From positions 43,405 through 107,404 of the IMG/VR virus record IMGVR_UViG_3300012662_000013: 64,000 nucleotides of DNA; one strand, 5' to 3'. Source of the stretch: a virus. Taxonomy: Duplodnaviria > Heunggongvirae > Uroviricota > Caudoviricetes. The notes below the pieces were generated by a model. It had not been told where the DNA came from and ran no database searches. It saw nothing but the letters and a program-made list of their open reading frames with translations. Positions 13,351 through 63,973 of the stretch are shown here, one piece after another (within the stretch, counting starts at the first letter, position 1; every line of letters starts with the position of its first letter). A program made the translations under genes and the position numbers.

Positions 13351-13354
13351 TAAA

Positions 13355-13944: not shown

Positions 13945-13957
13945 GGAGTAATGGAAT

Positions 13958-14194: not shown

Positions 14195-14221
14195 TATATT
14201 TTATTAAAGGAGGACATTTTT

Positions 14222-15312: not shown

Positions 15313-15332
15313 TAAGAAAAGAGGAAAAATAA

Positions 15333-15752: not shown

Positions 15753-15757
15753 TTACA

Positions 15758-23104: not shown

Positions 23105-26100
23105 CTTCAGCTTCTCCTTGGGAACGGTTATTTCTTAATACTAAATCACCATTAGATTGAATTCCATCAATGTGATAAAGTTGATGTCCGGCTGTTGATG
23201 CATACTTCTTAACAATAAAATCATCTCCAGAACGGATGCCTTGGGCTACAATCATATTACCGCGATTAAACCAAGATTTTTCAATAATTTTTTTAGTTCC
23301 ATCAGGTTGTTTTTGAGAAATTTGTTTGTCAAACAATGTAAAATATTCTTTTCTGAACTTTACATTTACTACTCCTGTTGGAGTAAGAATAGTTACAATA
23401 CTCTTATTCTTATTTTTAGCGATACAAGTGCCGCACAACTTAGAAAGATAATAAATATTTATTGTTTTTCCAGCCTTAATAAAGCTTCTTTCTACGACTG
23501 GGTCTTCTGGAAGTTTATAGAAATCAACAAATCCATATTTACCTTGATTAACTTTTGCTAATTCATGTTCGTGGTAATAGAAACATAATACTTCCATTTC
23601 CCACGCAGAATAATTTACTTTAGGACAATATTTATCCCAATCCATTTTAAATACAATTTCATTTAATTTATTTAAAATTTCTTCTTTATTATCAGCAATT
23701 TGTTTACGATAAACATCCATCCATCCTTGGTAAACCTTATCATTCCAATCCTTAATATTTAAAAAGAAATTAGAATTATTGCTTTGGATTAAGTCATCTT
23801 TATCAATCTTTTGTAAAAATCCAATAGCTCTTTCATCTAGTTTATAATTAACTTTATCATATTTACAAATTTGTTTTAAATAACGAGTAAATTCATAAAT
23901 ATGTAAAGCCTGTTGTCTTTCATCTGTATCTGCTGGAAGAAGATTTAATTTCATTAAAGTAGCTAAATTTTGAAGATTAAGATTTTTCTTTTTATCACAA
24001 GTTTCCCAAATATACCAAGCCATACAAAGTTTTCTATCCATCATATGGTCAAAAGCCCCACCCTTGATAAGAGAAATCATAGCTTGTTTATTAGGATTAA
24101 CTTTATTTAAGAAATCTCTAGGAGAGATATAAGGTCTGTTATCAATAATTGTGCGAACTACATCATCACCAACATTTAGCATACCTTTTAAGCCGAACAG
24201 AATTTGATTATTTTCAACATCAGGGATAAAACTAAATTCTGATTTATTAATATCAGCAAGACTTACTTTAATACCAGCCTTACGAATATCACCAATGGCC
24301 TTAGCAATTTTTCCATAGTCAGTAGAATTAGTTTTTCTTACCTTAGATTTTTTATCAGGTAAATCTTCAAAAGTAACTCCGTTAGCTAAATCATCAGCTT
24401 CTGGATCATAAATATCTACTATTTCTTCTTCACTATTATCTTCTAAAGAACCACTATTGACAATTAAACAAGCACAATTCCAGTAGATAGGATTGTAATG
24501 AATAACAAAATAAATCATTTGAATAGCTACAAATGAATAAGGGAGTGAGTGATTACGTATACTCTGACTATTTCTTACGGACTTTGTAGTGAAAGTGGTA
24601 AATTTTCTCGTCCGCACACCATTTCCAACAACGTGTCAATAGTTGTTGTACTCCAAGTCTAACCTTGGATAGTCGATACAATAGATTAAAAATAAAGTTA
24701 TTTTTTCCTTAAAGGATAATTTAAATTATCTTTTTTATGAGAGCGGCCAGTATTTATATTGGTTACTGTAGATCTTGATTTATTATATTTTTTAGCAATT
24801 TCATTTTGAGTTAAATTAGTATTTAATAAATCATTAATAATTTTATTAACCCAAATTTCATTAGCTTTTTTGTTACATCCTTTTATATATAAAGGATAAG
24901 TTTCATTTTTATCAAAAAAATATCTACCACTATTAATACCAGAAATAAAACCAATACTTTTAATATTAAAATCTTTTGCTATTGTTTTATAAATTTCTCC
25001 AGACTTTATTCTATCTTTAATTTGTTTTATTTCTTCTTTAGAGAAATGGCTTCTATTTATTTCTTTTTTTAAAGGATAATCAAATAAAGGATTTTTAAAA
25101 TTTAACCCGCTATTAATATTTATAAGATATGAATACTTTAAACGTGGAGAATATTTTTTTAAAATTTCATTAAAATCTTTATTGGCTATTAATAAATTCT
25201 GTATATTAATAATTTCATTTCCAGTAAATAGTTTTGAAGATTGTAATTTTTCTTTATAAGTTTTTTCCTTCGGAGAAAATCCTTGTCCTCCTTGAGAAAC
25301 ATTATATCCATTTAAAGAAATTAAACTTTGATATTGTTCTATATAATATTTTTCTTTATCATCTATATAATTTTGGTCTTTACTATCATCAATTTCTTCT
25401 AATATAATAAAATCAAAATTATTTAATCCATATTTTCTAATAGCATTATGGAATGGTATATTATAATCATTTGATTTAGGATTAAAAGAACAACTTTTAT
25501 GTCCATTTTTTCTTTTTTGGATATTATTTGTTTGACCAATATAAATCTTCCCATTTATTTTATTTTCGTATTTATATATATATTTCATTTTTGCACCTCC
25601 TTATAATCTATTTCTACTTTTAATCTATCACGAGATTTTACCCTCGTTAGCAATTAATTTTATAATACTACCAATATTATAATGTAAATTAATTACCCCT
25701 ATGACGAATAGGTTAAGTGTGTAAGCCCCAATCTCTCAAGGCTAAAAGCATATCCTAACTGCGGTGCTACTGCTGTTTCCCAAAAATATTCTGCATCACT
25801 TTTATTATTAAAACGACTAAATACCTGTTCCTTTAATTGAGGAATCTTAGCCATTTGTTTTTTAGCAACAACTTTACGTGCTGAGTTAGCTTCACCTAAT
25901 GTAAAATGAGCTATATCCATAAGGATTTCCATCATTTGTTCTTGTAAAGGGCAACAACCATAATATTTATCACAGTGTTTATGAAATTTATTAATAAGTT
26001 CTTGAGGCAAATGATGTTGTTTCATTTCTTGATCAAAGGCTTGGATACCTTGGTGTTGAATTCGATAAAATCTATCTTGTTGTGATTCTTTACCTTTTTC

Positions 26101-33216: not shown

Positions 33217-35332
33217 TTATATAATAATTCTTTCTTTATATAATTTAAGAAATAAATCTGGCCCTTCATCAGTTGGACTATCCTTATAATTAGTAAGCAT
33301 ATTCTTATCAAAAATAAAAGATATGTTAAAATAATTTCCATACTTAGCCTTTATTTTTAATAAGTTATTTTTTAAATGATAAAATTCTTCATCACCTATT
33401 TTTTGGAATTGTCTATCAAAAGCAATAATAATATCTTTCGCACCGACTTGCTCTAATAATTTCATTTGCTGAGCCGATACGCTGCTGCCGCAACAAGCTA
33501 CCGTTATATCATTTTCAAAACCAAAATAACTTTGATATTGTAAGGTTGACTTTTCCATATAATCCATTATTTCTAATGGTACTGACTATATCTTCCAACT
33601 ACTAATTATAGTTGCCACTGTTTCGAGATATGTACCAATAATATCTCTACTCCCTTTAACAGGATAGTCGATACAGGTTATCTATTTTTCCACATCTATT
33701 TTGCTCCTACTGAATGATTATTTCTTAGAGGATAATTATATCCATCAAGCCTATAAGATTGAGTTTTTCCATTTATTATATCTGAAATAGTGGAAGAAGA
33801 ACAATTGAACATTTTTGCTAATTCTTTTAAATTTTTATCATTTTTTAAAATTTCTTCATGAATTTTTTTACATTCTTCAGGAGAAAATTTTAATCCTTTA
33901 GTGCCTTTAGCTTTATTAGAACGAATAGGATATTTAATTCCAGACTAAGGTCTTCGTGCTCCAATATTTATATTGTATATGTGAGTTAGTGAAAATCCAG
34001 TTTTTTCACTTATTTCTTTAAAAGAATATTTTTCATTCTTTAAATACTCAATAACTTCTAATATTTTTTTATCTTCATACATTGGTTTAACAGGATTTTT
34101 TCCACCAGTTGATTGATTATAACCATTAAAATATGTATCATAATATTTTATCCAATATTTTTCTCTATTGTCTAATTCTTCAAGTGGAACATTTTCTTCT
34201 AAAACTATTAATTGATACTCTTCTTCTCCATATTTTCTTATCCCTCGACTTAAAGGATAATCATACTCTGCTTTATTCATATTAAATGGGTCATATTGAA
34301 TATGCTATTTATGTCTATTTTTTAAGTTATTAGTTTGACCTACATAAACAATTTTACCATTACTTTTTTTCTTATAAGCATAAATTACATTCATAAAATC
34401 AACTCCTTTTCTCACTATTATATGAAAAATGAAGTTAGATGTTTAAATAGATTTTCCCACGGAACCACCTTGAATTTAAAAAAATTTTTAGGCTCCTCCG
34501 TTAGCTTGTTAAAAATAACAAACCCCATTGGTAAATGGTAAAGTGGACTAGGGCGAAACTTTCTTTTACCCTCAAATATTATTGCTTTTCCTATCCTATT
34601 TATATTTGCTTTACTATTATTTAAATTATATAAATTCATACCAAGAGGATGAGAATAAAGAATCTTATTAATTTTTAATGGTCTATATTTGCCATACAAT
34701 AGAGCTTCCTCTTTTCCTAACACTCTTCCTCTTAGTCCTATAAAATTTCCATCTATGTCAAAATGAGGAATTGTAATAGCATCGCCGCCAGGGTAATAAC
34801 CAATTATTGCTTGGTCTATCGCCTCTTGGCTTATTCCTTCTTTTAGCCACGGAGTTAATTTTACACAATAATTAAATCTACTTAAAATTTTACTATCATA
34901 AGTTTTTAATTCAACTTTAGAATTTAAATTTTCTTCTATGTTATTCTTATCATAATTAGCTAAAAATTTCCAATCTTCTAAGCCTAAATCTTCAGCATCG
35001 TCTTCCACTGAACCGGCAATACCAAAATAATTAGCTATCCAACGAACTGCATCATTTAGGTCATACTCTTTATTAGATTGGATATGAGCTACTTTAATTA
35101 CTAATTCAAATATATCAAATATATCATCACAGCCGGTGTAGCATTTAAATAATTGACTATTTGAATAGTAATAAAGTTTCTTACTTCCTGCTCCTGGTTC
35201 ATTATGACAGATAGTTTCAGAAAGGATACCGAATTCACTATATTCAGGATTACCGCCCCAAATATTTAGTAATTCAAAAATATTGTCTAAAGTTAAATTA
35301 TTTTTTATCTCAGCTTTATCATAGTTAATCAT
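33217..35332 (-). CDS. DnaG/T7-type DNA primase (CHC2 zinc finger plus TOPRIM) split by a group I intron
   Basis: Exon 1 is in ORF 34418..35332 (zinc finger CHNEPGAGSKKLYYYSNSQLFKCYTGC; ends ..KAIIFEGK). Exon 2 is ORF 33217..33567 (..ITVACCGSSVSAQQMKLLEQVGAKDIIIAFDRQF), aligning to the TOPRIM EG..D...G...FD.D.AG. Confidence 0.65.
33578..34562 (-). mobile_element. Group I intron in the primase TOPRIM region carrying a GIY-YIG homing endonuclease gene
   Basis: 5' core gctaacggaggagcc...ccgtgggaaaatc; 3' core aacctgtatcgactatcc directly after the endonuclease stop. Confidence 0.55.
33678..34394 (-). CDS. GIY-YIG homing endonuclease (~238 aa), 3 in-frame TAG
   Basis: MNVIYAYKKKSNGKIVYVGQTNNLKNRHK[TAG]H..YWIKYYDTYFNGYN, plus YPIRSNKAKG/NYPLRNNH DNA-binding repeats. 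RBS aaaggag. Confidence 0.65.
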
Positions 35333-42271: not shown

Positions 42272-44523
42272 TTATTTAATACTATAACCAAATTCTTTTG
42301 CTTGATAGAACTCTTGCCAATAATCTTCTCGGCTATCCAATAGGGATTTATCACAATCTTCAAGAATTTCAAAAGTAAATTGTTCCGGCCCTAATTCATA
42401 CATTGCCGGATAAAGTTTATTGCGGGTTGGAGCTTCTGCTCCTACTCCACGCTTTATATGTTGTTTCCAGCGGTCAGCGATATTGCAAATTATTTTATAA
42501 TTCTGACTATCTTTTACTGTTAAAATTTTAACAGGAAACCATTTCGGCATTTAAAGGACTTCATTTCTTAAAATCCTACTACGTATCAATAGTAGCCCTA
42601 CTTCCCCGCCCAAAAGGCCTAGGGAATAGTCGATACAGGTTCTTTGATTAGCGTGCTGGATAATCATAATCTTTTATAGAATATGACTTTCCTTTATTAA
42701 TTTTACTAACTGTATTTCGATGTATATTATATTTAATACCAATATCAGACATTGATTTAGAACTATTTCTTAAATCTGATAAAATATTTTTTACTTCTTC
42801 AATAGTAAAATTTTGATTATTTCTAATATTTTTATTTCTAATAGGATAACTATAATTGCCATTTTCTTTGAATAAAGTCCCTTGATTAATTGCTCTAATT
42901 ACTTTTAAAGGAACTTTATACTTTTGAATTAAATCTGTTTCAATCTATAAATCCCAACGATATAATAAATCTTCTTTCAAATTTAATAATTCCTACTCAT
43001 TAAGAAAATAATCTAAAACATTATCTTTTTTCGCAAAATCATGATTATTTTGCCTTAATGGGTATGAAAGATTGGAATTAAAATACGTATTTCCTTGAGA
43101 TATATTAAAAATAGTGTCTTGACTAACTTGATATAAATTAGCAATATCTTTATAAGATAATTTAGTATTATTTACTAATAAATCTATAATTTCATTTAAT
43201 TGCTATTCATCAAATTTAGAATTACAATTCTCTACTCCTCGTTTACCAGAAACATTCCCATTTTTTAATACATTATATCCTATAGATTTATCTGTAGCAT
43301 TATAAAAATCAATCCATTTAGTTTCTATGGCATCAAGCTATAAAATATCAAAAACCTATTCCAATACTTCAATTGTAGCTTGATGTTTTTTTAAAGCCTA
43401 ATCACAAATTTGAATATTTTTATTATTATGCTCATTGGCTCTAGACCAAATACTTAAAGCCTAACCGATATAGATTTTACCATTATCATAATTTATTTTA
43501 TAAATACCACAGACTTTTAAATTATTATTAATATTAGTAATCATTGTTGTTTCCACCGTCCTTCTATATATTATTAATTTTTATGGAGGGTGGATTAATC
43601 AAAGTTTCCCACGGGATTGATTAAACTTAATTTTCCCCGTTAGCTTGCCATTTTCTAAATTTTGGTAAATGGCAAACCCCATTGATTAATGGAAAAGTTT
43701 TTCATCGGCCAATGTTGACCGCTTGACCTATATAACATTTTTGACTTTCTATATTAGTAATCTTATAAATACCTGTGCGGATTTTCTGACCAACTACTCG
43801 GCCGATTAAATCACTATAAGGTTTTTCATAATATACTTTCCAAATTACTTTATTAATTGGTTCAGCACTTCTTAAATAAGGAACAATTGAACGAATTTTT
43901 TTAATTTCTTCAATATCAATTTCACTTAAATTAAGTTTATAAAACTATTCTTTTTGTTTTACTTCTTCGGCACGTTTATTAGCTTCAACAATAGCATCTT
44001 GTTTTGCCTTTGCATCAGCCAATTCTTGAGATACCTTATTTAATTCTTCTTGCTTTTGGATAATTAAATTAGCATATTCTTTTGTGCTTTCTTCAATAGC
44101 TTTTAAATATTCTTGTTGATAATTATCTTCTGCCTATTGGTATTTCTAAGCCATCTATTCAGCAGACTAAGCAAGTTTTTCAGATGCTAATTCGTTTGCT
44201 TTTTGGCAATACATTTCAGCGTTTAAACTTGCTTGCTAATAATTTTCATCAAGAGTTTTCTTTTTATCTTTTAAAAAATCTATTTCTTTAATTAATAAAT
44301 TATAATCATTATTTAGATTAAAGATTTTTTCATTTAACTCATTTTGTTTTTGAAGAAGCCTTTGACTTTCTTCAATTATTTTTGCGTTTTCTTCTCTAGT
44401 TTGATTATCTAACTCAATTGTGGCTTTTAATTTATTACGCAGACCTAAATATAAAAGACCAGCACCGAGAAGAAAACATATTACGCAATAAATTACAGTC
44501 ATATTTAAAAAGAAAAAGGGCAA
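42272..44523 (-). CDS. Membrane-anchored coiled-coil protein whose C-terminal GIY-YIG nuclease domain is split by a group I intron
   Basis: Exon 1: ATG 44523 (ORF 44236..44523), transmembrane segment plus coiled coil read through 7 TAG to ..KIRTGIYKITNIESQKCYIGQAVNIGR then TGA 43702. Exon 2 lies within ORF 42272..42550: ..WKQHIKRGVGAEAPTRNKLYPAMYELGPEQFTFEILED..REDYWQEFYQAKEFGYS, the second half of a GIY-YIG domain. Confidence 0.5.
42480..43705 (-). mobile_element. Group I intron, homologous to the topoisomerase intron, inside a GIY-YIG nuclease gene and itself encoding a GIY-YIG homing endonuclease
   Basis: Shares tgaaaaacttttc, gctaacggggaa...cccgtgggaaac, aacctgtatcgactat...ctactattgatacgtag and gtaaaagatagtcag blocks with the intron at 49376-50428. 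Confidence 0.55.
42648..43544 (-). CDS. GIY-YIG homing endonuclease (~298 aa), 8 in-frame TAG
   Basis: MITNINNNLKVCGIYKINYDNGKIYIG[TAG]ALSIWSRANEH.., then repeated YPLRQNNH / YSYPIRNKN / YDYPAR motifs. Confidence 0.6.
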
Positions 44524-49031: not shown

Positions 49032-51924
49032 TAATGCCTTGTCCCATTAAGTCTTCAAATAACTTATCAGTAGCTTCTACGTCTTCTACAGTGATTTGTT
49101 TGATAATACGGTTTTCAGGATCAGTTAAAGTTTCTTCTGTTTCATCAACATCCATTTCGCCAAGGCCCTTCATACGATTGACAATATATTTTTTACCTAC
49201 ATTTTCTTTGCGGAAAACTTCAAGAGCTTCATCATTTTTAAGATATTTATATTTTTTACCAATCGTAATTTTATAAAGCGGTGGCACACCAGCGTATACA
49301 TATCCATCTTTAATCAATTCAGGGCAAAAATTCCAAATGAAAGTATAAAACAGATTTTTAATATGTGCGCCGTCGCGTGTTATTCTTATGTTTCCATAAG
49401 CACTGACTATCTTTTACTTTCTAAATATTAGAAAGGAAACCATTTCGACATTTAACTCACTTCGTTTCCTAAAATGAGACTACGTATCAATAGTAGCTCT
49501 ACTCCCCTGCCCATAAGGCTTAGGGGATAGTCGATACAGGTTCAAATATTAATCCATCGCTTTTCTTTCTTTTTATATAAAGGTAAAGAGGAATAAGAAC
49601 GGCCCCATAATATTGCCTAAAAACCTTGAAAACTAATTCTATCTTTATAATCTTTATATATTTCTTTAGCATTTTCATTTACATATCTTTTTCTAATTTG
49701 AATTATCTCTTTATCAGAAAATTTAGCGTTAGAGCCATTTTCATTTTTACTGTTATTATAAATATAATATTTTTTATTTTCTATAGTAAAAACTTCAGGC
49801 ATTACATTAGACCAACATTTTCCAGACCAAACATTCTAAAAATGATTGAAAGAAATTTTATCTTTAAATAATTCATAAATATCTTTCTAACGATAGTGTT
49901 TAGCATAAGCTTGTCTAATAATTTTTACGTCATTTTCTGTTAATTTAGCTCTACCATTATTTTCTCCAATTGAGGATTGATTTCCTCCTGGATTACAATT
50001 ATAACCTTTATTAAAAGTATTATAATATTTAATCCAATATTCTTCTTTATCATTTAATTGACTAATAGAGCATAATTCAATTATTTCATAAGTAAATGAA
50101 TTTTTTCCATATTTTTGAATAGCGATATCAACAGGAATTCTGCTTTTCTCTCCAACAGTCTAATGTTCTTTAAATCTACGTTCTATATCATTAGACTAAC
50201 CGATATAAGATTTTCCTGTTTTTTTATTAGTTATTTTATAAATACCAATCATTTTACCATCCTCCTATGAAGATGGATTAATATTTGTTTCCCACGGGAT
50301 TCTCCTGCGTTTCCGTTTAGAGTTCCCCGTTAGCCATCTTCTATTATTATATGAGAACCATCAATGTATAATTAATAGAAGTTGACCCGCCTGATTAGAC
50401 GAAAAGTTTTTCATACGCCGTTTTGCTGACGTCTGCATCGCTCATTATGATAATTTTGCCATATCGTAAATCTTCTGGATGATATGTAATTTTCATATTC
50501 TTAGGGTCAATGGTTAAACCGAATGCTTGAATCATAGTCATAATTTCTGCATTCTTTTGGATTTTATCAAGACTTGCTTTTTGAGTATTAAGAATTTTGC
50601 CACGGACAGGTAAAACTGCTTGGAACTCATTATTACGAGCATCTTTTAAATTACCGCTTGCACTATCGCCCTCAGTGATATAAATTTCACATTGACTACG
50701 TTTTTTGCTATAGCAGTCAGCTAATTTACTATCAAACTTTAAAGCTTTCTGCTTCTTTTCATTTTGATTACGAACAGTTTCTCTAGCTTTTCTAGCTGCC
50801 TCTCTAGCACGACGTGCATTAAGAGCTTTATCTGCAATAATCTTAATTGATTTTTCATTAAGCTCAAGCCATTGTCTAATACTTTCAGTAATCCAAGGAG
50901 TAAACGGAGACATATCCAATTTCACGATTCGGCTCTTGGTCTGAGCATCATAACTTACTCCAGGAGTAGTGAGATTGAATACAAGATACAAACCTTCTTG
51001 GCAATCATCACCTGAAAGGTTTTCTTCTTTATCTTTTAACCATTTCTTTTCACGGAAAAATTTATTTAATTCACGAGTAAGAATAGTTTTAATTAAAGTA
51101 ATGTGCGGACCGCTATCAGTAAGTCCAGTATTTACATAGGGAACAATAATAGATGAATAACTGTCAGTATAAGTTAATTCAAAATCTAATTTATTCTTTC
51201 CTTCATCTTTTTTAAGAATTAGCCTATTATCAATGATTTCAGTGTTTTTAACTGCATCATTTACTAAATCAGTTAACCCATTAGCTGAATAATATTCTTC
51301 GCCATTAAGGAGAATTTTTAGACCGGGGCATAAGCATACAAGAACTTTAAATAACTGTTTAATAGTATTTAAATTAACTTCTGTATGAGTGAAAAACTCT
51401 TCACTAGGTTGCCATTGGACCAAAGTTCCTGAGGGATTATCTTTGTTATTCCAATCTCCGCATTCGCGTTTAACAAACTCACCTTCTTTGAACCAAATAT
51501 GTTCATATTTACCATCTCGATGTGTAATTACTTCAAGCCGGTGAGAAAGATACGTGGCTAATTTGCTACCAATACCATTAAGACCAAGGGCAGTTCCTTC
51601 ATATACGCCATCATCATCATATTTACCTGACGTATTTAATACTCCAAAAGATGCCTCAAGGATAGTCTTACCATCTTCTCGCATTGCATTTGGAATAAAT
51701 CCTTGTCCATTATCCTCAACGATAATTACATTATCTTTATTAATATCAACTTTGATAGTATCGCCGTGGCCTGCGGCATACTCATCGACCGCATTTGATA
51801 CAATCTCAATAAGTAATTGAGTTGAATATTCAGTAGAACCACAATAGACACCTGGTCTAAGGCGAGTAAATTGTAAAGGGCTTAGCGACTGTATACTATC
51901 TTCTGTATATACTTTATTAGCCAT
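48973..51924 (-). CDS. Type II topoisomerase ATPase/TOPRIM subunit (GyrB-like; T4 gp39-like) split by a group I intron
   Basis: Exon 1 is ORF 50395..51924, ending ..YGKIIIMSDADV at 50429. Exon 2 starts at 49375 (DGAHIKNLFYTFIW..PPLYK..KGLGEM..). The splice restores GyrB ..[24 protein letters not shown].. Confidence 0.75.
49481..49545 (-). repeat. Group I intron 3'-core repeat (..ctactattgatacgtag..aacctgtatcgactatcc..), copy in the topoisomerase intron
   Basis: ~85% identical to 42581-42645; a shorter match at 33640-33677 and partial matches at 24640-24680 and 58060-58080. Confidence 0.6.
49542..50252 (-). CDS. GIY-YIG homing endonuclease (~236 aa), 5 in-frame TAG
   Basis: MIGIYKITNKKTGKSYIG[TAG]SNDIERRFKEH..EEYWIKYYNTFNKGYN. 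ORF 49617..49802 is the C-terminal piece. RBS ggaggatgg. Confidence 0.65.
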
Positions 51925-54180: not shown

Positions 54181-56476
54181 TTATTTATTATTCATAAGAC
54201 GATAAAGGACTTGAATCATTTCTTCACGAGTCATAAATTTTTTATACATTTTACGGCCTTTTTCATCACCTTTAACTAATCCAGTATTTTCTGCCCAAGA
54301 GCGAGCATCACCAGACCAAGCACTAGGGTCTTTCGTGGCGAGTTCAGTCAAATAGTTATTCATCATTTCATTAAATTTTTCTTGAGTCATATCTTCATCT
54401 TCCTCCTCTACTCCTAATAATTGATTTACTTTTTCGGCGATCTCATAATGTTTATTATATAAATAATCACCGGGACAAGATTTATTAGCAAACCATCTAT
54501 GGACTGTCATATTCTATTCTTCTGGATGACCAATTAAATTTTTATCAGCTTTCCATTTGAGTGATTTTATGTTATTACGTTTACAAATATCAGCAAGTAA
54601 TTTAATTAAAGAATTAAATGCTGCATCAGTCACCTTATAGGGTGATGTAGTATCACTAGCTACTTCAATAGTAATTGCACGATTATCATTTGCGGCATTT
54701 GAAGAACACCAAGAACGGTCTTTTTCTTCAACATACATACCAATTCTACCATCTGGTCCAATACCATAATTAGAAGAAGCTTGTTTAGAAGTTGGTGCAA
54801 ATATACTACCAAGCGTTTCAACCGAACATTGACCTACAACACAATGAATAGTAACTGTGTCAATTACATGATTACGGGGACTAGTTTTATTAGGGCTAAT
54901 CTATGTATAATTTACTAATGAGCTATTAGTTTTGCCATATCCATATCCAGCAGTTGGGTCTTCATCTACAGTATCGCTATCTTTTACAGCAGGGTTATAA
55001 ATAAAACCTAAGAATTTATATCCAGAACCAGCGCCCCAGTTGCCATTTCCTTTTTTGCGTGTAGCATTCCAAAATGGATTTTTGCTACCCCAGCCACTTT
55101 CAGATGTAATAACTTCAGTAGAACTTACTACTTTTTCTACAATAGCTACGTGACCGACGCCATCACTACCCTTTTTAGTAGCGCCACCCTGCCAAACCAT
55201 ACAAGCACCAAGTTTAGGGGTCTATCCAATAGGTATACCAGTATTATTATATTCAGTAAAACGCTCGGCATTTACAGGACTTAAATATTTACAATAGCCC
55301 CAATTGCCGATTTCATTAAATCTTCCGTATGCGTCATTCTGTTGCTTTAAGACCTTAGATATAAGGCGGATAGGACGTTAATCCTATCTCTATGGTTTCA
55401 TTTTTAGATTATAGCCATAGTTCAGACTGTATATTACTTTCATTTAGAAAGAACTCACTTCAATAACAATATTACTATTGTTATCCTGCAGTCGTTAAGG
55501 TTTCTCAATAAAGAGTCTTACCTCGGTCTGAAGTGTCTCCACCCTTTAACCGATATAGTGAGTTATGGGCACTTATAATATTCCCAATGTAAATTTCCAG
55601 ATGTTTTTTGTTTTCCTCTACAACAATTACGTATACCAGCCATACTAATATTTTTCTAGCGGCCAGCTTCTGAAGCACTTTCAAATATTTCATTAGTTTC
55701 AATACATCTTACTGGTTTACTATTTGCTTCAATTACTTTTTGACGTAAATTAGAATTTTTCCACTGCTTTTTTGTAGCTTCAGAATTATGCTCTCGCCAT
55801 TCTTTTGAATCATAAATTTCTCGCATTTTTTCTTTTATTATCGGGTTATTCATTGCTTCTTTCGTTTTATTTGAAATTAATTTTTTTTGTTCTTTAGTAC
55901 GAGTTTTTCCTTTATTTTTATGGCCGCTCTATTTCATTTTTTCTAAAGCTTGTTCTGTGAAAGTAATATTGTCTATTCCGCCACTCTATTTATTGTATCC
56001 GCAATCTGGATTACACAAGTCATATTTTTCTACAAATTCTTTTTCTAATTTTCCAGCTTCTTCTTTGGTTAAATTATTAAATAAAATTTTATGCTCAAAA
56101 TTGTCCCATCCGTATTTCTTAATAGCATTGGTAAAATGCTAGTTAGTTTCATAATGGGTTCCATTTTTCCATCGTAAGTTAGGATTATTACCATATTTAG
56201 TAATTCCTATATATCTTTTATTGTTTATTTTATTTATATGTATATAAACACAATAATTGTTTTCCAAAGTTAAATCATTCCCTTATATTTATTTTCTAAT
56301 AAATATAAAGTTTAAGAATTTGTAATTATAAAATTTTACCCCACGCAATTGGAAAGTACATTGCATTTGCTATCAGTCGGGTTTCCCTTAATAGCATAGG
56401 AATAGCCGCCATTAGCTCTTGTAATGTAATATTTATTACCAGCTTCTGGTCGTGTTGTTCTCATTTTAAAAGCCAT
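54181..56476 (-). CDS. Multidomain endolysin: CHAP peptidase plus Amidase_2 (N-acetylmuramoyl-L-alanine amidase), interrupted near its 5' end by a group I intron
   Basis: Exon 1: RBS plus ATG 56476 (MAFKMRTT..SNCVG, then TAA plus ggggtaaaatttt). Exon 2 from ~55395: CHAP ..GNWGYCKY..TPKLGACMVWQ..GHVAIVEKV..ITSESGWG (ORF 54901..55200), then amidase ..VTIHCVVG..GHPEE[TAG]..HRWFANKSCPG (ORFs 54514..54738 and 54181..54510). Confidence 0.55.
55395..56338 (-). mobile_element. Group I intron in the endolysin gene carrying a GIY-YIG homing endonuclease gene
   Basis: The 5' end ggggtaaaatttt resembles gagggtaaaatctcg (dnaE intron) and ggtaaaatctgcc (late-gene intron). The structured 3' region is 55400-55560. 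Confidence 0.45.
55563..56267 (-). CDS. GIY-YIG homing endonuclease with NUMOD-like and C-terminal HTH tail (~234 aa), 4 in-frame TAG
   Basis: ..NNYCVYIHINKINNKRYIGITK..YDLCNPDCGYN..GHKNKGKTRTKEQKK..KPVRCIETNEIFESASEAGR[TAG]KNISMAGIRNCCRGK.. ORF 55656..55853 is a piece. TTG start after aaggga. Confidence 0.55.
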
Positions 56477-56489: not shown

Positions 56490-56528
56490 TCTCTTATATA
56501 AAAAGAGAAGAAGGTTGCCCTTCTTCTC
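56490..56528 (-). terminator. Hairpin terminator (gagaagaagg/ccttcttctc) after phoH, before the endolysin RBS
   Basis: 10-bp stem plus tttttata. Confidence 0.55.
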
Positions 56529-59072
56529 ACATTTGTTCTGCTAATTCAGCAATTTTAGAACGATGAATTTGTTTTAATTCAACTTCACCATATATATTAT
56601 TATTACGTAATACCTCTGATGCACGACGCATACCATTATTTAATCCAGAAAAATTAATATCATCAACCTGAGTTTTTAAATCGCCGTCGATAATACAAAT
56701 ACTATCTTCGCCAATACGTTGAAGGCTTAATTTCATAAGGCCAATATCCATATTCTACGCTTCTGAGATATAAATACCTGCACGCATACCTGTTGTGTCA
56801 TAACCACGAATATCTGATAAGGGTAGCAAAACTAATTTATTTTCATCAATTAATTTTTCCACCATCATTTTATCTCCAAGCTTACTACTTAATAGATTAC
56901 CGATTTGGCTATCTAAAAGTTTTTCATCACGAGTGCCGGGGTAAACAAAACTTTATAACTTTCATTATAAAACTGACTATATCTTAATTTAAACTATTTT
57001 TTAAAGCAAGATAAATATTATGTTTGCGCTTTAAGAATCTCGGACAATTGTTGTATAAAATATCTAAAATATGAAGAACTTGTAAACGTCCTCGCCATTG
57101 TGTGTGCCAAGCACTGGTATAGAAATTTTTATTCTTTTTTTCAATTCCTGTTAAAGAATTTATTAAATTCTAAAAATCTATCACTTCTGTTTCGTGGTAA
57201 GCGGTATAATTAATAGAGACATCTGTACTATGATTAGAACTACAATATAAAGAACCATCTCCATCAAAAAGGCCTAAAGCAAATGCCGGTTGGAATTCTA
57301 AAGGAATTTTTTCATATGGAATATGGTTTACATTATAAGTTTTTTTAGGAATAATATTATAATTAGCTAAATCCTAAAAAATTTGTTCATCAGTAAATTC
57401 TATTGAACAACAAGTACTATTAGGACGAATATTATAAATTATTTTACAATCTAATTGTAAATCTTCTTTAAACTTTTCTAATATCTCTTTGTCACATTCC
57501 TGTAGCTATAATCTAATACGTCCTGTTGTTTTTAATTTATCAACACAGCCATCAGTAAATAAAAAACCTAACCAGTAAGCTTTTTCTGGTTTATCTATAA
57601 TAGAAAAATAATTACTATTAATACGTCGATTGACTCTATTTAATGTTTTTAATTCAAGATTCATTTCAGACATTAAATTTTTGATAGTTTCTTCTGAGGC
57701 ATTAAAATATTTAGCAATATCTTTTAAAAAAGAACCTTTATTTAACATTTCTTTAAGTTCTTTTTTTTGCTCTAATGACCATTCTCTTTTTTTTCTTCCA
57801 CCTCTAATAGTAATATTATTCTCTTTCAGAAGTTTATTTATTTGTCGTCTATTAAAAGAGGGATATTCTATTAATAATTTATTAATTGAATATCCATTTA
57901 GATATTTTTTTATAATTTCTTCTTTCAAACTTATTCCTCTTTTATTATATATATAAAATTTTAAGGCATAAGTTTTTCAGTTCTTGTCCAAAATTTTTCA
58001 GTTTAAATCCCTTGCGCTTCGGCCTAAGCCTACTCTACTTACTTCCACTGTATAGTGTGCTTTCGATAGTCGATGAGCCTTTCCCTATTCGGGACTTGGT
58101 TGCTGATTGTCCAATCCAATTAATTTTTAAACATTCACACTTCGATTTATTTCATTCGTATGTTGTAGTTTAATCGGCTCTAAGGGTGTTCCAGCAATTC
58201 ACAAGGTTTTACTTGAGCCTTACCCTTTAAATTAACCCAAGTTTTGCGGAATTTTTAGTAGCAACAGTATTACAAAATACAATTATTTTATCAATTTTAT
58301 TTCTTTCAAGAGCATTTAATAAAAATGCTAATGATAAAAATGTTTTACCTGAGCCGGCTGGCCCTTTAATCATAGTAATTTTATTATTTAAAAAGCTATC
58401 AACAGCTAAAGCTTGATAAGGATCATTTTTAAAGGGTTTTACATTACCAAAATAGGTAGAATTTAAATTACCATAAGAAATAGTTCTATATGTATCACCA
58501 TCCCATACTATTTTGTCTATTATTTCTTTCTCTTGGTTATAAATAATAGCGTATTGGTTAATTAATAAATTAAATTTATTAATTTTTAAATTTTGATATA
58601 GTTCAATAATTTCATCTTCATTTAAACTTACTTCAATATATCCGCTATATGGGTCATGACGTTCTTCCTCAATAGATGATACATTTGATAAAAATAATTT
58701 AGCAATACATTTTAAAGTTAAATCATTAGTAATAAAATTATCAATAGGATGGCTCTTATTATTTTTATTATAACTTAATGCAGTTGCTAATATTTTCATA
58801 TCATTAGTTATTGATAAATCATATTTTCGTATAGGTTTTATCATTTTTTCTTTATAGATAATTACTTGACATAAGTCAGGGTTATCATTTAAAGCTCTTA
58901 ATAACTAACGAGCAGTATATTTTGTATTAGCATCTTTATTAGCTGATGTTTTAATATTTTCTAACTCATCTAATGTAATAGATGAAATTATAATCTATTC
59001 ATTTTTATCTTCCAATAAAGTTCCCTTAGTTAATAAACTACAAGTGTCATAAAAATTATATATCATCTTCAT
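56527..59072 (-). CDS. phoH: PIN-domain plus PhoH-like ATPase (YlaK-type) split by a group I intron; TAG at the Q of DEAQN
   Basis: N-terminal PIN domain (..FYDTCSLL..ITLDELENIK.., 2 TAG), PhoH Walker A GPAGSGKTFLSLA (ORF 58227..58844 ends ..NSAKLG). Exon 2 from ~56949: FVYPGTRDEKL..YISEA[TAG]NM..KLSLQRIGEDSICIIDGDLKTQVD.. (ORF 56527..56751). Confidence 0.65.
56950..58235 (-). mobile_element. Group I intron in phoH carrying a double-motif LAGLIDADG homing endonuclease gene
   Basis: The exon-1 frame hits TAA 2 codons after KLG. 58040-58230 is structured non-coding sequence with a gatagtcgat-like core. Confidence 0.5.
56984..57928 (-). CDS. LAGLIDADG homing endonuclease (~314 aa; AYWLGFLFTDGCV and LGLFDGDGSL), 3 in-frame TAG
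   Basis: ORF 57506..57928 (TTG start, RBS aagagga) continues through TAG to TAA 56984-56986. N-terminal HTH resembles that of the dnaB-intron endonuclease. Confidence 0.6.
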
Positions 59073-59295
59073 ATTCAACCTCGTCTTCCTATGGTATTGA
59101 GAATCCAATAACGTGTGTATTAGTATCAGATTCAGTCAAGTTTGTAATTTGATTGTTATGTTCTGCTATTTTAACAGAAAACCAACCTTTGACCAATTCG
59201 GCAAGATTTGCTATTAATGCTGTAATAAAATCTAATAAAGTTAGTCCAACAGTAGCAAATATAATACCTAGAATAAAATATAATATAAGAACCAA
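59056..59295 (-). CDS. Small membrane protein (~79 aa), one TAG
   Basis: ORF 59089..59295 extended through TAG; overlaps the phoH start. Confidence 0.35.
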
Positions 59296-59333: not shown

Positions 59334-59903
59334 TTATTGTAGTATATTTACCTATCCTGGACCACTTAATTTATTCCAGCTTTTGGATAAGTCTTCTAAA
59401 ACATCTTTAGTAGATTTAAAAGTACCATCAGAATTAGTAAGATTAATTCCTACGTCTCGGAATAATTTTTCTTTTTCTTTTGTTTTCTTTAATTTAATAA
59501 GTTTATTTACCTATTCTTTATTTGAAATATATTCTCTTAGTTTGCTTTGAGAATATTTAATTTTATTTTTAATAGCTGTATATTGTTTTAACAGATTATC
59601 ATATTCAGCTTTAATGCGTTTAAATTCATAAGATTGCGGGTTTAATTGCTTACTATTCAACATAGTGCTAATTAAATGCTCATATGCTTGGATTTGCGGA
59701 ATAATCTGATTATTTTTAATATGTTGTAAAATTTTAATTTTGCAACGACGTTCAGCAATTTCGCATCCAGTAAATTCACTCATATAATCCCAATCGTCTG
59801 GATGGCATTTGGCTATTCCAACAAAAGTATTTTGTCCATCAAAAATAGTACAAGTAGCTCTTCCTCGATGTTTATTATAATCAAATATAGGTTTTCCTAT
59901 CAA
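59334..59903 (-). CDS. Hypothetical Cys/His-containing protein (~189 aa), 2 TAG
   Basis: TTG start 9 nt after aaggagg. ORF 59511..59903 continues through TAG to TAA 59334-59336. Motif CHPDDWDY..GCEIAERRC. Confidence 0.4.
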
Positions 59904-59928
59904 AAGAAAAATCCTCCTTTTTTATTTT

Positions 59929-59957
59929 AGTATATAATAAAAAAGGAGGATTGTCAA
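59929..59957 (-). promoter_or_regulatory. Sigma-A-type promoter TTGACA-N17-TATACT embedded in a 17-bp inverted repeat that includes the downstream RBS
   Basis: Consensus -35 and near-consensus -10. Inverted-repeat arms 59907-59922 and 59938-59951 (aatcctcctttttt / aaaaaaggaggatt). Confidence 0.5.
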
Positions 59958-59958: not shown

Positions 59959-60870
59959 TTATTTTACAGGAGCTACTAATTCATAAATTTTCTTTAAACA
60001 TTCAATCCAATATAATGCGGCATTTCTATCTACAGTATTTAATTGGATTTTTTTAGTTTTTGTAAAGTCATTAGGGTCAGGAATCTATACTGTCCAAATT
60101 TTTATTGGATTCATTTTATCCTAATCTATATCTATACGATCTTGGTTAAGATTATTTAAATTGGTAATAATTGTTTCAAAAGTTTTATTTAATAATAAAG
60201 TAAATGTCATTTTACCGTCTTTATCTTCATTCCAATTATTAACTAATCCAGCTATTGTATTATCTCCAAATTCATTAATATAGTCTTGATTTTTATATAT
60301 GGTACTAATTTTTAAATTTTCAAATAAACGGAAAATAATCTTTTTTAAAGTATTAATATCATCACTTTCAGCAATACGAGAAAGATGTAAATTCTCTATT
60401 AATTTATTCACTTCTTCACTAGTACATCCATAATTACAATGACCAACACAACCTGCAGAACAAGCACCTGAACATTGTTCAGCACAAGCAGTAGTACAAG
60501 TACCAGAGCAACCTCCTGAACAAGTGCCAGAGCAATCTCCTGAACAAGAGCCAGTGCAGCTGCTACAATCTCCAGTGCAACTGCTACAATCACCACTACA
60601 AGTTCCATTACAAGAAGGGGAAGGACCACAATTAGCAGAGCAAGGGCCACATCCAGACTAACAAGAAGCGGTACAAGAACAATTATTTTGTTTATTATCT
60701 CCTTCATCTCCAGGCTAGCTACTTGAAAAACAACTTCCTCCACAGGCTGCTTCTTGAGCGTCCTAAGTGTAGTCTCCAGGCTCATTAGTATTTGCATTAT
60801 TTGAAACACAATTTTCTGGTCTATCATAACTGCCCATTTGGACACTATTACTACCTGAATTACAAGCCAT
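59959..60870 (-). CDS. Cysteine-repeat protein (~303 aa): N-terminal ~130-aa tract of CxxxC/CxxC repeats (..CSGDCSSCTGDCSSCTGSCSGDCSGTCSGGCSGTC..) plus a C-terminal globular part; 5 in-frame TAG
   Basis: RBS aaaggagg plus ATG 60870, starting 1 nt after the rSAM TAA. Verified codon by codon. ORF 60121..60411 is the C-terminal piece. ORF 60408..60845 (LVLV..) is its out-of-frame artefact. Confidence 0.55.
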
Positions 60871-60872
60871 AT

Positions 60873-62171
60873 TTATTCCTCCTTTATTAATTCATTAAAT
60901 TCTTCTAAAGAAATAATTTCTTTTACAAAATTATAATCTACTTTACTCATTACGTTTAAACTTTGTTTATCATTTAGTATTTTATAATAATAAAAAGTAG
61001 CTAAGTATTCAGCTTTATGGCATTGACAAATTGTTGTAGTTCGATGACATAAATCTCCTGTCATCTAATAGCTACATCCAGCGCACCAGCTACATCCTGT
61101 CTCTATCGGGCATTTTAAGCATTTGTCTTCTGAAATATTACGCTTAGTATATTTTGAAAATTCTTCTAAAATTTGTTTTTCTTTTGGCAAAGTTCCAATT
61201 CCTCTATCTACATTTCCTAATATTAATGGTTCAACTTCATTTCCCAAAGAACTTTCCATAAAGCGCAAGCAAGAATAAATATCTCCTTTATAATCAAGTG
61301 CATACATACTAGCTGTAGTTCCGCACCATTGGGTATCTAAATCCCATTCTAATAATTTTTTATATCCATAAGGATTAAAAATCCTAAAAAATATTTTATC
61401 ATTATAATTATTATTTTTAATCCATTCAGCTACTTTTTTTAATTCTTGATAATACAATTTTATATCTTCGATATTTTTCCAAACATTTTCAAAAACACAA
61501 TTAGCATAAATATTTTTAAAACCTAAAGACATAATATTAGTTAATCCTTGATAAACATAATTTACATTATCTGGGCTAAAAGTAATTTTTGTACTATTAA
61601 AACCTAATCTTTTGGCATCTAAAGCAGCAGCTACTGCTAAATCATAGCTACCTTGTCCATTAGGAAATAAACGACATTTATCATGTAATTCCTTACATCC
61701 ATCTAGAGTAATATTTAGACTAAGTAAATTTTTATATTTTTTTATAAATTTCTAAACGGCGGGAGTGAAGTATAAAACTCCATTTGAACAAATATTATAA
61801 ATATGAAATAATTGCCAAGGACTATTATATGGAATTTCATTTAATTTTGTTTCAAAATATTCACATATCTAATCTATTAAATTAATTTCTAACAGAGGCT
61901 CTCCCCCAATAAATTCTAAAGTTAGTCCTCTTACTGTTTTATCACAAAAAGGACTATTTTCGATGGTTCTATTATTAAAGACATAATCAATAAATTTTTT
62001 AGCAGTTTCAAAAGACATTTTGTGATGTCCTTTATTTTGCTAATAACAATATGAACAACATAAATTACAGTCATCAGTTACCTAAAAGGTTAAAGATTTC
62101 ATTTGTCTCTATGGTAATTCAGGAAATAAATTAATTATATATGTATTATATTCATATCCAGGATTTAACAT
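60873..62171 (-). CDS. Radical SAM enzyme with C-terminal SPASM domain (anSME/peptide-maturase-like, ~432 aa), 4 in-frame TAG
   Basis: CNLCCSYCY (Cx3Cx2C), GGEP, ..LDGCKELHDKCR.., then the SPASM Cys cluster CLKCPIETGCSWCAGCSY..CHRTTTICQCH (ORFs 61065..61532 and 60873..61064). RBS aaggag. Confidence 0.65.
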
Positions 62172-62178
62172 AAATTAT

Positions 62179-62421
62179 TTACTCCTTTATCTCTATAAAA
62201 AAATTTGGTAAATCTACATCAATAACATTACTTTTTAAAATATTATATTTTTGTTTAAATTTAGAAGTAGAGATACCAGCTTTTTTATACTAATCTACAT
62301 ATTTATTTAAATAATAAAAATCAAAAGAAAATAAAAATCTCGTTTTTAAAATGTCTTTTAAATATTCTTCTCGAACGAACTAATAAATATCTTCTGAAGA
62401 AACATTAATTCTTTTAATCAT
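62179..62421 (-). CDS. Small protein (80 aa) upstream of the rSAM gene, 2 TAG (possible partner/recognition protein)
   Basis: RBS aaaggag plus ATG 62421. Ends TAA just before the rSAM RBS. Confidence 0.35.
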
Positions 62422-62547: not shown

Positions 62548-62588
62548 GGATACAAAAAAAAATAAGTAAGGGATTTAAATCCCTTACT
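62548..62588 (-). terminator. Rho-independent terminator (aagtaagggatt/aatcccttactt plus T9)
   Basis: 12-bp stem directly after the flotillin stop, then TTTTTTTTT. Confidence 0.75.
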
Positions 62589-62590
62589 TA

Positions 62591-63973
62591 TTACTTCTTC
62601 AGATAATTACCAAGAACTTCCTTCAAATTAATACCTGTTGCTTCAGAAAGACCATTCATAATTTTATCTGCTGTCTGCATTACATCAGACACAAGCTTGG
62701 TGTTTCCACCTTCACCATAAACGGTAATCTTATCAACATTATTAAGAGGTTCAGCGGCATTTTTAACAACTTCAGGCAATGCCTTGAGATACATTTCAAG
62801 GACGGAAGCTTCGCCCATCTTCTTCTGAGCTTCAGCTTTCTTTTCGATAGCAGATGCTTCTGCTTCACCAACTGCGGCAATACCAGCAGCCTTCTGTTCG
62901 GCAGCATACTTTTCTGCTTCTGCTCTAGCCTTCATAGCTCGTGCTTCCTGCTCCATTTCATAAGCTTTAGCTTCTGCTTCCTTCTGACGCTTAATCAGAT
63001 TTGCAGCAGCCTGCTGTTCAGCAGCATACTTATCAGCATCAGCCTGCTTACGAACAAGAGCATCAAGTTCATATTCCTTCAGCTGAATCTGCTTCTGCTT
63101 CAACTCAGCTTCGCGTTCTGCCTTAGCGATATTAGCATCAGTAGCTGCTACATCACGAAGCTTACGCTGATTCTCAGCCTCAATGCTTGCCGCAGCATCA
63201 GCTTGGGCCTGGCGAGTATCAGCTTCCTGCTTCAACTGAGCCTGCTTAATAGCAAGGTCATTGTTGCGAGTAGCCATATCTTCAGCAGCCTTAACTCGTG
63301 CGTCATTAGCTTCTTTATTATTGGCAGCTTCAGCAATCGCAATTTCACGTTGAGCGTTAGACTTTGCAATCATTGCATCCTTACGAATCTGTTCAACATT
63401 GTCAATACCGAGATTGGTAATTACATCATTATCATCAGAGAAATTCTGAACATTAAATGTAATTAATTCAAGACCCAACTTCGCCAAATCCGGCACACTA
63501 TTTTCCTGGACTCTCATGGAGAATTCCTTGCGGTCATTAATCATCTGAACAAGCCCAAGAGTGCCAACAATCTCACGCAAGTTACCTTCAAGGAGGTCAT
63601 TAACCTTATTCATAATTTCATCATGCTTTGCATTAAGGAAGTTCTGTGCGGCGACTTCAATCAATTCAGGCGTCTGACTAATTTTAACAATCGCGGTTGC
63701 ATCTACTTTAATATTAATGAAATCATTAGTAGGAATAGATGTTTTTGTTTTTACATCAATCTGCATTGCCTTGAGCGAAAGCTTATCAATCCTTTCAAGG
63801 AATGGAACTCGCAATCCTGACTTACCTACGACAATTCTTGGATTTTTACACAAACCTGATACAATATAAGCTACATCAGGCGGAGCTTTAAAATATCCAA
63901 GTCCAATGATAACACCGACGAGAATTACTCCAAGAATAATCCAAATGTGAGACAAAATTGCTGACAAAATCAT
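62591..63973 (-). CDS. SPFH/band-7 flotillin-like membrane protein (YqiK/FloT-like) in a ~45-48% GC island; no TAG codons
   Basis: N-terminal transmembrane segment, SPFH domain, then a long Ala/Glu/Lys-rich coiled-coil (..AEQKAAGIAAVGEAEASAIEKKAEAQKK..). RBS aaggag. Base composition is distinct from the ~28% GC flanks. Confidence 0.7.
   Translation of the reverse strand: MILSAILSHIWIILGVILVGVIIGLGYFKAPPDVAYIVSGLCKNPRIVVGKSGLRVPFLERIDKLSLKAMQIDVKTKTSIPTNDFINIKVDATAIVKISQTPELIEVAAQNFLNAKHDEIMNKVNDLLEGNLREIVGTLGLVQMINDRKEFSMRVQENSVPDLAKLGLELITFNVQNFSDDNDVITNLGIDNVEQIRKDAMIAKSNAQREIAIAEAANNKEANDARVKAAEDMATRNNDLAIKQAQLKQEADTRQAQADAAASIEAENQRKLRDVAATDANIAKAEREAELKQKQIQLKEYELDALVRKQADADKYAAEQQAAANLIKRQKEAEAKAYEMEQEARAMKARAEAEKYAAEQKAAGIAAVGEAEASAIEKKAEAQKKMGEASVLEMYLKALPEVVKNAAEPLNNVDKITVYGEGGNTKLVSDVMQTADKIMNGLSEATGINLKEVLGNYLKK

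Follow-up and report, generated by a model that had tools for sequence, protein, structure and literature searches.

A radical SAM/SPASM enzyme and a cysteine-repeat protein in a TAG-recoded phage: a very probable divergent CXXX-repeat modification system

Research on radical SAM (S-adenosylmethionine)/SPASM maturases has been concerned nearly always with enzymes that produce small peptides for secretion. What would such an enzyme modify in a phage, beside a protein of 303 amino acids (aa) crowded with cysteines? The question is raised by three genes on the minus strand (59959-62421) of a 64,000-nucleotide (nt) stretch of the virus record IMGVR_UViG_3300012662_000013, here called the window. 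An original prediction, made from the letters alone, had described there a 432-aa radical SAM enzyme coupled to a Cys-repeat protein and preceded by an 80-aa protein, and the three open reading frames (ORFs) are indeed present once TAG is taken as a sense codon. We have found that the cassette is very probably a divergent CXXX-repeat modification system. The substrate is best explained as a protein and not a leader-core peptide, and it has neither protease nor exporter beside it. To the fuller reading we give an even chance: the system would introduce thioether cross-links, one after another, into a phage protein that is made late and is probably associated with the virion.

Under the bacterial code (table 11) ORF calling gives only fragments of the region, and the in-frame stops are all TAG (counts in the list below). 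Over the whole window, dropping TAG from the set of stops lengthened the long ORFs far more sensibly than dropping TGA, and resulted in a coherent gene map, with the structural genes on the plus strand (680-16309) and the remainder on the minus strand. TAG was read as glutamine because the TAG codons of the enzyme fall on Gln columns of its homologues: in the alignment the column of residue 30 is Gln in 13 of 13 homologues and that of residue 44 in 12 of 13, contigs of standard code among them. Throughout the window TAG stands for Gln, and the table 11 reading of the cassette, which breaks up its three genes, was dropped. Also discarded was a 145-aa Val/Leu/Ala-rich ORF called under table 11 in another frame (60408-60845, minus strand), which is an artefact of the codon periodicity of the Cys array and not a gene. 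An Rfam scan of the window matched no family; no tRNA, and hence no suppressor tRNA, was found in the 64,000 nt, so that the suppressor must be encoded elsewhere. The source is best explained as a TAG-recoded jumbo-type phage of gut Bacillota. The features of the cassette, from its 5' boundary to its 3' boundary, are the following.

62561..62592, minus strand: terminator-like hairpin, 14-bp stem followed by a T-run (-20.9 kcal/mol, z = -6.5), between a flotillin-like gene and the cassette
62179..62421, minus strand: 80-aa accessory protein, 2 TAG codons, GGAG ribosome-binding site, putative distant relative of TIGR04116
60873..62171, minus strand: 432-aa radical SAM/SPASM maturase of the TIGR04115 family, 6 TAG codons, no fused N-terminal recognition domain (RRE)
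62046..62069, minus strand: CX3CX2C radical SAM cluster motif CNLCCSYC (C35, C39, C42)
61026..61325, minus strand: SPASM region with C283, C301, C351, C354, C360, C363 and C382 (auxiliary Fe-S clusters), TIGR04085 over residues 283-376
59959..60870, minus strand: 303-aa Cys-repeat protein, the candidate substrate, 5 TAG codons; variable N-terminus, CxxxC array and 154-aa clade-specific domain
60424..60681, minus strand: CxxxC/CxxC array, residues 64-149, 23 Cys, unit C-[S/T]-G-x
59911..59951, minus strand: hairpin with a perfect 15-bp stem (59951-59937/59925-59911) and a T-run (-19.6 kcal/mol, z = -5.05), directly past the stop of the Cys protein

To which family does the enzyme belong? Its best NCBIfam match was TIGR04115, the "radical SAM peptide maturase, CXXX-repeat target family" (349.7 bits, E = 2.4e-104). 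Gln was assumed at the six TAG codons, and the match takes in positions 2-359 of a model of 359. The PapB family (NF047865) came second with 171.6 bits against a cut-off of 340, followed by the maturases of SCIFF (TIGR03974; 103.6 bits, cut-off 425) and CcpM (103.0 bits), by QhpD (TIGR03906; 97.6 bits, cut-off 453) and by anSME (TIGR03942; 45.6 bits, cut-off 349), with MoaA and viperin far behind TIGR04115. Judged by these scores, the enzyme is not a member of the PapB, SCIFF, QhpD or anSME families by their own cut-offs. The placement originally proposed, with the peptide- or protein-modifying maturases and apart from QueE, viperin and NrdG, is thus borne out, and no grouping with a housekeeping family of non-protein substrate appeared, TIGR04115 being the best match. 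A viral homologue (L008), 43% identical to the enzyme, passes TIGR04115 at 402.5 bits. Pfam gave only a weak Radical_SAM/Fer4_12 signal, and the SPASM model TIGR04085 was passed (30.1 bits, cut-off 27). The three cysteines of CNLCCSYC and the seven of the C-terminal cluster listed above, both of which the prediction had pointed out, are invariant across a 14-sequence alignment. More than 1,800 relatives of the enzyme are present in the protein collection, the nearest cultured or deposited matches being uncultured 'Bacteriophage sp.' records and distant (25%) radical SAM genes of SPN3US-like jumbo phages.

Among solved structures a sequence comparison found only that of CteB, the SCIFF thioether synthase (5WGG; E = 6.8e-17), with enzyme residues 23-385 aligned to residues 95-438 of the CteB chain. 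Since the alignment begins at residue 95, the N-terminal RRE of CteB is absent from the phage enzyme, in which only about 24 aa stand ahead of the core. In the case of PapB, the RRE comprises residues 1-85 (PMC12715619).

The putative substrate contains 28 Cys in total (more than 30 had been announced), and the array, thought to cover the first 150 or so residues, is real but occupies residues 64-149; there are 23 Cys in it and four in residues 1-63. Cys makes up 26.7% of the array residues, vs 1.5% in the window proteome. The spacing between consecutive Cys is exactly 4 in 18 of 26 cases and 3 in another three. The repeat unit is C-[S/T]-G-x, with Ser or Thr at +1 in 66% and Gly at +2 in 61%, a variable +3 (Asp in 17% of the units) and the next Cys at +4. 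The likeness to ranthipeptide repeats seen at first was therefore correct in the CxxxC spacing, but not in the unit, which is not the Cys-x3-Asp of PapA. A two-repeat minimal substrate sequence is exemplified by CSGTCSGGCSGTC. Among 11 homologues the Cys columns are invariant and the spacers vary, the best conserved repeats being those beside the C-terminal domain (CTTACAEQCSGxCSxGCVGxCNYGC). This domain, predicted as some 150 non-repetitive residues, measures 154 aa and is 93-95% identical in the five closest relatives, whose N-terminal and Cys parts are 34-47% identical. Its frame runs on across two TAG codons, one of which is replaced by a sense codon in a relative that conserves the continuation. 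The invariant Cys positions, together with the conservation of the domain past the TAG codons, support the reading frame, which the prediction had left to be checked on homologous contigs. The domain is confined to the phage clade (27 relatives among 5.8 billion clustered proteins) and gave no Pfam, NCBIfam or informative PHROG match. The hidden Markov models (HMMs) of the catalogued targets, TIGR04114 and TIGR04117, did not match the window protein at E <= 0.1, and matched that of L008 only weakly.

What chemistry could be applied to such an array? The closest characterised relatives of the enzyme (PapB, SCIFF/CteB and QhpD) are Cys-to-carbon thioether synthases, and for this reason thioether formation appears probable here, by analogy and with a likelihood that we put somewhat above even. 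PapB has been shown to form thioethers (PMC9413430, PMC12715619). In the proposed mechanism the enzyme, with one SAM cluster and two auxiliary clusters and aided by the 80-aa partner, would act in repeated rounds on the 23 Cys of the C-[S/T]-G-x array, abstracting a hydrogen from a neighbouring residue and joining each Cys sulfur to carbon. Processing may begin at the conserved repeats beside the non-repeat domain. The product would be a ladder of small thioether rings, that is, a rigid, reduction-insensitive and protease-resistant segment. A different modification of the array, such as conversion of Cys to formylglycine or dehydroalanine, epimerisation, carbon-carbon cross-linking or methylation, has in its favour that SPASM enzymes are diverse and that anSME, cyclophane and dynobactin maturases all match the enzyme weakly, as well as the enrichment of only S/T at +1 and G at +2, with no Asp, Glu or Thr acceptor at a fixed offset. 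However, the four best-scoring characterised families (PapB, SCIFF, CcpM and QhpD) all act on Cys-rich targets and three of them are shown thioether formers, and every Cys of the array is strictly conserved, which implies that the sulfur itself is used. We consider these other chemistries unlikely.

Is the pairing of the enzyme with a Cys-repeat protein peculiar to this phage? Pattern scans, with confirmation of the matches, found relatives of the enzyme in at least 555 stretches of bacterial genomes and at least 474 of IMG/VR. We have examined 177 independent loci, 97 plus a further 80 viral ones, for proteins encoded near the enzyme on its strand in which closely spaced Cys form a run, the minimum being set at 8 Cys for the 97 loci and at 10 for the 80 viral ones. 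Such a protein was found in 90 of the 97 and 72 of the 80, i.e., in 162 of 177 loci. The coupling claimed from the single sequence holds for most of the loci, and the gene trio, which was to be sought in phage contigs, is widespread. The named hosts of the enzyme relatives are all Bacillota anaerobes but three (Raoultibacter, Planctomycetaceae and Chitinivibrionales metagenome-assembled genomes, MAGs). These hosts fit an oxygen-sensitive chemistry that replaces disulfides, and in strict anaerobes thioether cross-links would stand in for them.

Two classes of loci could be distinguished. Class A, which includes most loci and among them the closer relatives of the window enzyme, has substrates of 140-650 aa with 11-145 Cys and a conserved domain of about 105 aa (LKxKVKxEMxRR...YDF...EH), usually ahead of the array. 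In some class A loci the domain stands behind the array instead, and its versions match each other by hhalign with probabilities of 98%, 96% and 81%. The largest substrate, in an uncultured Tenericutes MAG (L066), is a protein of 650 aa with 145 Cys, made up, past the 105-aa domain, of little else than CxxxC/CxxC repeats. Two copies of the system (L103 and L149) are located on one 185.5-kb jumbo contig, IMGVR_UViG_3300029305_001878, and the second of them has Cys-repeat proteins on both sides of the maturase. By eye, 'DDINTLKKIIFRLFENL' of the window protein resembles the 'LKxKVKxEMxRR' domain of the tail-module proteins; hhalign, at 0.5-6%, lends this no support, and what is left is a weak positional resemblance.

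Class B (9 of the 80 genome loci) is of the RiPP style (ribosomally synthesised and post-translationally modified peptides), with precursors of 54-80 aa that carry 8-10 Cys, a TIGR04116 protein and ABC transporters. Its enzymes are of 711-745 aa, with an additional C-terminal Cys-cluster extension, and none of the nine loci has phage tail or lysis neighbours. In five of these loci (L083, L087, L088, L095 and L096, from Clostridium, Paenibacillus and Halanaerobiales) the extra C-terminal region of the maturase measures about 280 aa and bears a further CxxC...CxxC cluster, and the precursor genes are in tandem and end in a GPG motif.

The third gene of the cassette, for which the role of a recognition or chaperone partner had been suggested, turned out to be conserved in position and weakly in sequence. 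In the related phages the position is taken by an ORF of 77-92 aa whose similarity can be recognised (L003, L007 and L018 conserve it; in L001 it has a non-ATG start). A database protein, P0184, is near-identical (99%) to the 80-aa protein. Most other loci have an ORF of 94-143 aa immediately upstream of the maturase, a small partner being found upstream in 45 loci. The alignments of the window-type and prophage-type small ORFs matched over their full length by hhalign with 68% probability (E = 4.7e-5; E = 0.27 for a reversed control), and the prophage type matched a TIGR04116-positive protein (100.9 bits, cut-off 50) with 94% probability in a profile-profile comparison. The 80-aa protein itself had no HMM match in NCBIfam, TIGR04116 included, so the link to this family is chained through the prophage type. 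These comparisons suggest that the gene is a conserved third component, distantly linked to TIGR04116. Regarding a PqqD-like RRE, no Pfam match was found for the 80-aa protein at E <= 0.1, and the family profile gave nothing below E = 0.1 against PDB sequences. The AlphaFold model of the small protein has three helices and no sheet at low confidence (pLDDT 62), and its best Foldseek match in the PDB was at E 0.58. The PqqD part of the suggestion therefore has no support, although these results do not exclude it firmly. The partner may still stand in for the absent fused recognition domain, in docking or as a chaperone; its predicted fold lends this no support.

Where is the product destined? 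In class A the order of the neighbours by PHROG annotation is tail protein, baseplate wedge subunits, baseplate J-like protein, tail fibre, Cys protein, small ORF, radical SAM enzyme, holin and endolysin, the last two being seen in prophage loci. An annotated tail or baseplate family was present in 32 of 50 class A genome loci, which is a lower bound. Of the 80 viral loci, 34 have a recognised tail-fibre gene whose next downstream neighbour is the Cys protein or, in loci that have the Cys gene in last place, the pair of small ORF and enzyme. Most related (pro)phages have the Cys gene straight behind that of the tail fibre, and candidate hosts of prophages with the tail-module version are Desnuesiella massiliensis mt10 (L029), Neglectibacter timonensis SN17 (L050), Anaerobacterium chartisolvens DSM 27016 (L052) and Eubacterium pyruvativorans i6 (L025). 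In one group of phages of about 30-60 kb the Cys protein consists of a conserved N-terminal domain, about 250 aa of repeats, a junction CQAQAFGAVV and a variable end. Among near-identical phages of this group (L124-L169, IMG/VR) the junction is followed by a tip A in 7 cases, a divergent A' in 4, a tip B in 3, no tip in 5 and a separate ORF in 2. These variable ends look like the exchange of tip modules that is known from receptor-binding proteins. The tip domains, the F1 domain and the L102 protein gave nothing informative when scanned with Pfam and PHROG, and tblastn did not find the tail-module domain in cultured phage genomes. This anchor-stalk-tip layout after a tail-fibre gene, in loci with no protease or exporter, is the reason for supposing that the matured protein would be a late, virion-associated component of a fibre or stalk. 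For class A in general the arguments for and against such a virion role are evenly balanced in our estimate.

The same neighbourhood allows the Cys protein to be seen as cargo, namely a very large precursor of many cores whose leader or follower has the size of a protein; an antimicrobial or signalling product would be released from it at lysis or from lysogens, to the benefit of phage or host, and the site by the tail and lysis genes would be a moron insertion site. The enzyme family does have true small-peptide loci (the class B precursors with their TIGR04116 protein and ABC transporters), conservation is highest in the repeats proximal to the domain, as expected of a leader-proximal recognition site, morons are known to insert at the tail-lysis junction, and long leaders occur in RiPP biology. 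Nevertheless, no protease, exporter or immunity gene was found in any large-substrate locus examined, no GG-type cleavage motif could be seen by eye at the junction of domain and array (no motif search was run), and substrates reach 650 aa and 145 Cys. Besides, some of them bear folded-looking, exchangeable C-terminal domains past the array, and the placing of the genes with respect to the tail fibre does not change among widely differing phages. A cargo RiPP seems to us fairly improbable.

In the window itself the timing of expression can be approached through the reading code. TAG is dense in the plus-strand structural genes (13 of 634, 16 of 1139 and 21 of 1148 codons), and the cassette bears a similar load, with 2 of 80, 6 of 432 and 5 of 303 codons (1.4-2.5 per 100). 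Most of the replication genes, and the flotillin-like gene next to the cassette, have 0-1 TAG each, and some minus-strand genes are TAG-dense. In TAG-recoded phages a high TAG density is commonly regarded as a sign of late expression. The cassette carries the codon signature of late genes, from which we infer late expression itself.

This signature is relevant to the possibility that the modified Cys protein stays inside the cell and never enters the particle, as a take-over or anti-defence factor that might, for example, soak up metal or Fe-S, buffer the redox state or serve as a decoy. The cassette does lie among non-structural genes (flotillin-like, NADAR, phosphoesterases, a kinase, PhoH/PIN), its Cys density is metallothionein-like, and the N-terminal and Cys part evolves fast, as do arms-race genes. 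On the other hand, its TAG density is of the late and not the early type, simple metal binding requires no dedicated radical SAM enzyme, most of the homologous systems are found in tail modules, and PADLOC or anti-defence evidence, which was not looked for, did not turn up. We regard an intracellular factor as improbable. A virion role for the copy of this particular phage is in our estimate somewhat less likely than not.

Several observations weigh against an iterative thioether-crosslinking system that acts on a virion-associated protein. The cassette has a flotillin-like gene on one side and a PhoH/PIN gene on the other, and not tail genes; about 44 kb separate it from the structural block (680-16309, plus strand). 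None of the Cys proteins scanned matched a PHROG or Pfam tail family. The junction of tail fibre and lysis genes, where the relatives are found, is a classic site of cargo (moron) genes in prophages. The enzyme falls 0.3 bit under the curated cut-off of TIGR04115 (350). No Asp, Glu or Thr is conserved at a fixed offset, no acceptor residue can be named, and the motif differs from that of PapA, which has six Cys-x3-Asp repeats behind a short leader, whereas the window protein has an array of 23 Cys in C-[S/T]-G-x units on a protein-sized substrate. The C-terminal domain has only three or four true relatives among 1.84 billion representatives, and its best comparison with the tail-module domain gave E = 0.006 and a probability of 6%, a positionally consistent resemblance that we do not count as homology. 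The AlphaFold model of an ortholog of 77% identity (P0121) was unusable (pLDDT 38). Finally, a search of 8 million full texts found no paper on the system and no experiment on any member of the TIGR04115 family, so that the thioether is argued by analogy. The claim that no phage system of this kind has been described holds in so far as the phage context appears undescribed in the searchable literature; the type of system, by contrast, is already catalogued as TIGR04114-04117.

The boundaries of the cassette are well marked. The hairpin at 62592-62561 stands 3' of the preceding flotillin-like gene and forms the 5' boundary of the transcription unit, and the second one stands at the 3' end; with strong hairpins at both ends the trio looks like one transcription unit, and we consider that the three genes form one operon. 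The AGGAG ribosome-binding site of the enzyme gene overlaps the stop of the 80-aa gene, and the gap from the enzyme stop to the ATG of the Cys protein is of 2 nt, not 1 as first given. Of the promoter and hairpin said to close the cassette the hairpin is real; a TTGACA-17-TATACT match does overlap it, but promoter-like sites are no commoner than in shuffled sequence (24 vs 23.6). The GGAGG ribosome-binding site of the gene that follows (TTG start, 59903) lies in the 3' arm of this hairpin.

The cassette is located about 5 kb upstream of the lysis genes and in the same orientation. The phage relatives (contigs of about 105-211 kb) keep the order flotillin-like gene, small ORF, radical SAM enzyme, Cys protein, 184-aa protein, small membrane protein, PhoH/PIN, endolysin and holin-like gene. 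No ABC transporter or peptidase was found near the window cassette, unlike the small-peptide loci. The flotillin-like/SPFH gene (62591-63973, minus strand; 460 aa, an N-terminal membrane segment, no TAG), an unusual phage gene, is directly upstream of the cassette in all relatives of the phage clade. After the cassette comes a 189-aa gene (59334-59903, minus strand), conserved in the clade (family F7), whose last 50 or so residues resemble a segment of tape-measure proteins by weak Pfam and PHROG matches. It is followed by a membrane protein of 68-79 aa (59089-59295, minus strand).

Further downstream the PIN/PhoH-like gene is split on the minus strand into an N-part (58227-59072) and a C-part (56527-56868), with a LAGLIDADG endonuclease ORF (56984-57748) between them. 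A related phage (L003) has an intact gene of 430 aa, and the split is probably due to an intron or other homing element; no group I intron model matched it. The Amidase_2 endolysin (339 aa, within 54181-55937, minus strand) begins with a truncated CHAP domain; a NUMOD-like endonuclease ORF (55563-55937) and a 64-aa piece from that family lie upstream of it. The relatives have an intact gene of 430 aa, which suggests that here too a homing element has broken up a gene. ORFs with GIY-YIG motifs are also found among the replication genes on the minus strand (24698-25588, 33678-34394, 42648-43544 and 49542-50252), one of them confirmed by Pfam. The phage appears heavily colonised by homing endonucleases.

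If the proposed reaction is correct, these enzymes would be among the most iterative protein cross-linkers known, with substrates of up to 145 Cys in hundreds of viral contigs and prophages. A virion fibre as the product would represent a new chemical hardening of phage particles, beside the HK97-type isopeptide chainmail and disulfides, and would explain the confinement of the trait to phages of anaerobes. The boldest version, namely that phages of strictly anaerobic gut Bacillota staple the CxxxC-repeat part of a tail fibre or stalk with tens to more than 100 thioethers by means of their own radical SAM enzyme, as a substitute for disulfides and with the stalk bearing exchangeable receptor-binding tips, is in our opinion somewhat unlikely; it would make a structural protein of the virion the first to be cross-linked post-translationally in the RiPP manner. 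In practical terms, an enzyme without a fused leader-recognition domain may tolerate varied spacers, which would be relevant to peptide and protein stapling, where PapB is already exploited.

How does the system compare with those already known? The resemblance to PapB/PapA (freyrasin) is that of an iterative radical SAM/SPASM enzyme working on a Cys-repeat substrate, but PapB has its RRE fused at the N-terminus and the window enzyme does not. PapB accepts very varied sequence around the Cys (PMC12715619, PMC10739248). With CteB/SCIFF the whole catalytic and SPASM core can be aligned, and CteB makes its thioether on a Cys-rich peptide in Clostridia; the first 94 residues of CteB (the RRE) have no counterpart in the window enzyme, and the SCIFF substrate is a peptide of about 45 aa with six Cys instead of a protein of 303 aa.

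Tail fibres with repetitive stalks (collagen-like, Gly-rich) offer another comparison. Like them, the relatives have the Cys gene after the tail fibre and before the lysis genes, with a conserved anchor-like domain, a repeat stalk and a variable tip swapped between near-identical phages. Unlike them, the Cys proteins have no sequence or profile similarity to annotated tail proteins, and the window copy lies outside the structural block. To our knowledge there is no precedent for a dedicated radical SAM enzyme acting on a structural protein.

The closest counterpart is the CXXX-repeat system itself (TIGR04115 maturase, TIGR04116 associated protein, TIGR04114/TIGR04117 targets), which has been defined only in silico, in TIGRFAMs/NCBIfam. 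Both have the same enzyme family without a fused RRE (the window enzyme at the threshold of the model), a set of three genes and the CxxxC periodicity of the target. The small partner and the target of the cassette fall short of the TIGR04116 and TIGR04114 models, and while the typical small-peptide loci have precursors of 54-80 aa, an enzyme of 711-745 aa and ABC exporters, here a 432-aa enzyme and a 303-aa substrate with a folded-looking extra domain are found in a phage with no exporter. What is new with respect to the catalogued system is a substrate of protein size, a short enzyme that has no C-terminal extension and the setting in phages and their tail modules, to which this window adds a clade-specific substrate domain in a TAG-recoded jumbo-type phage.

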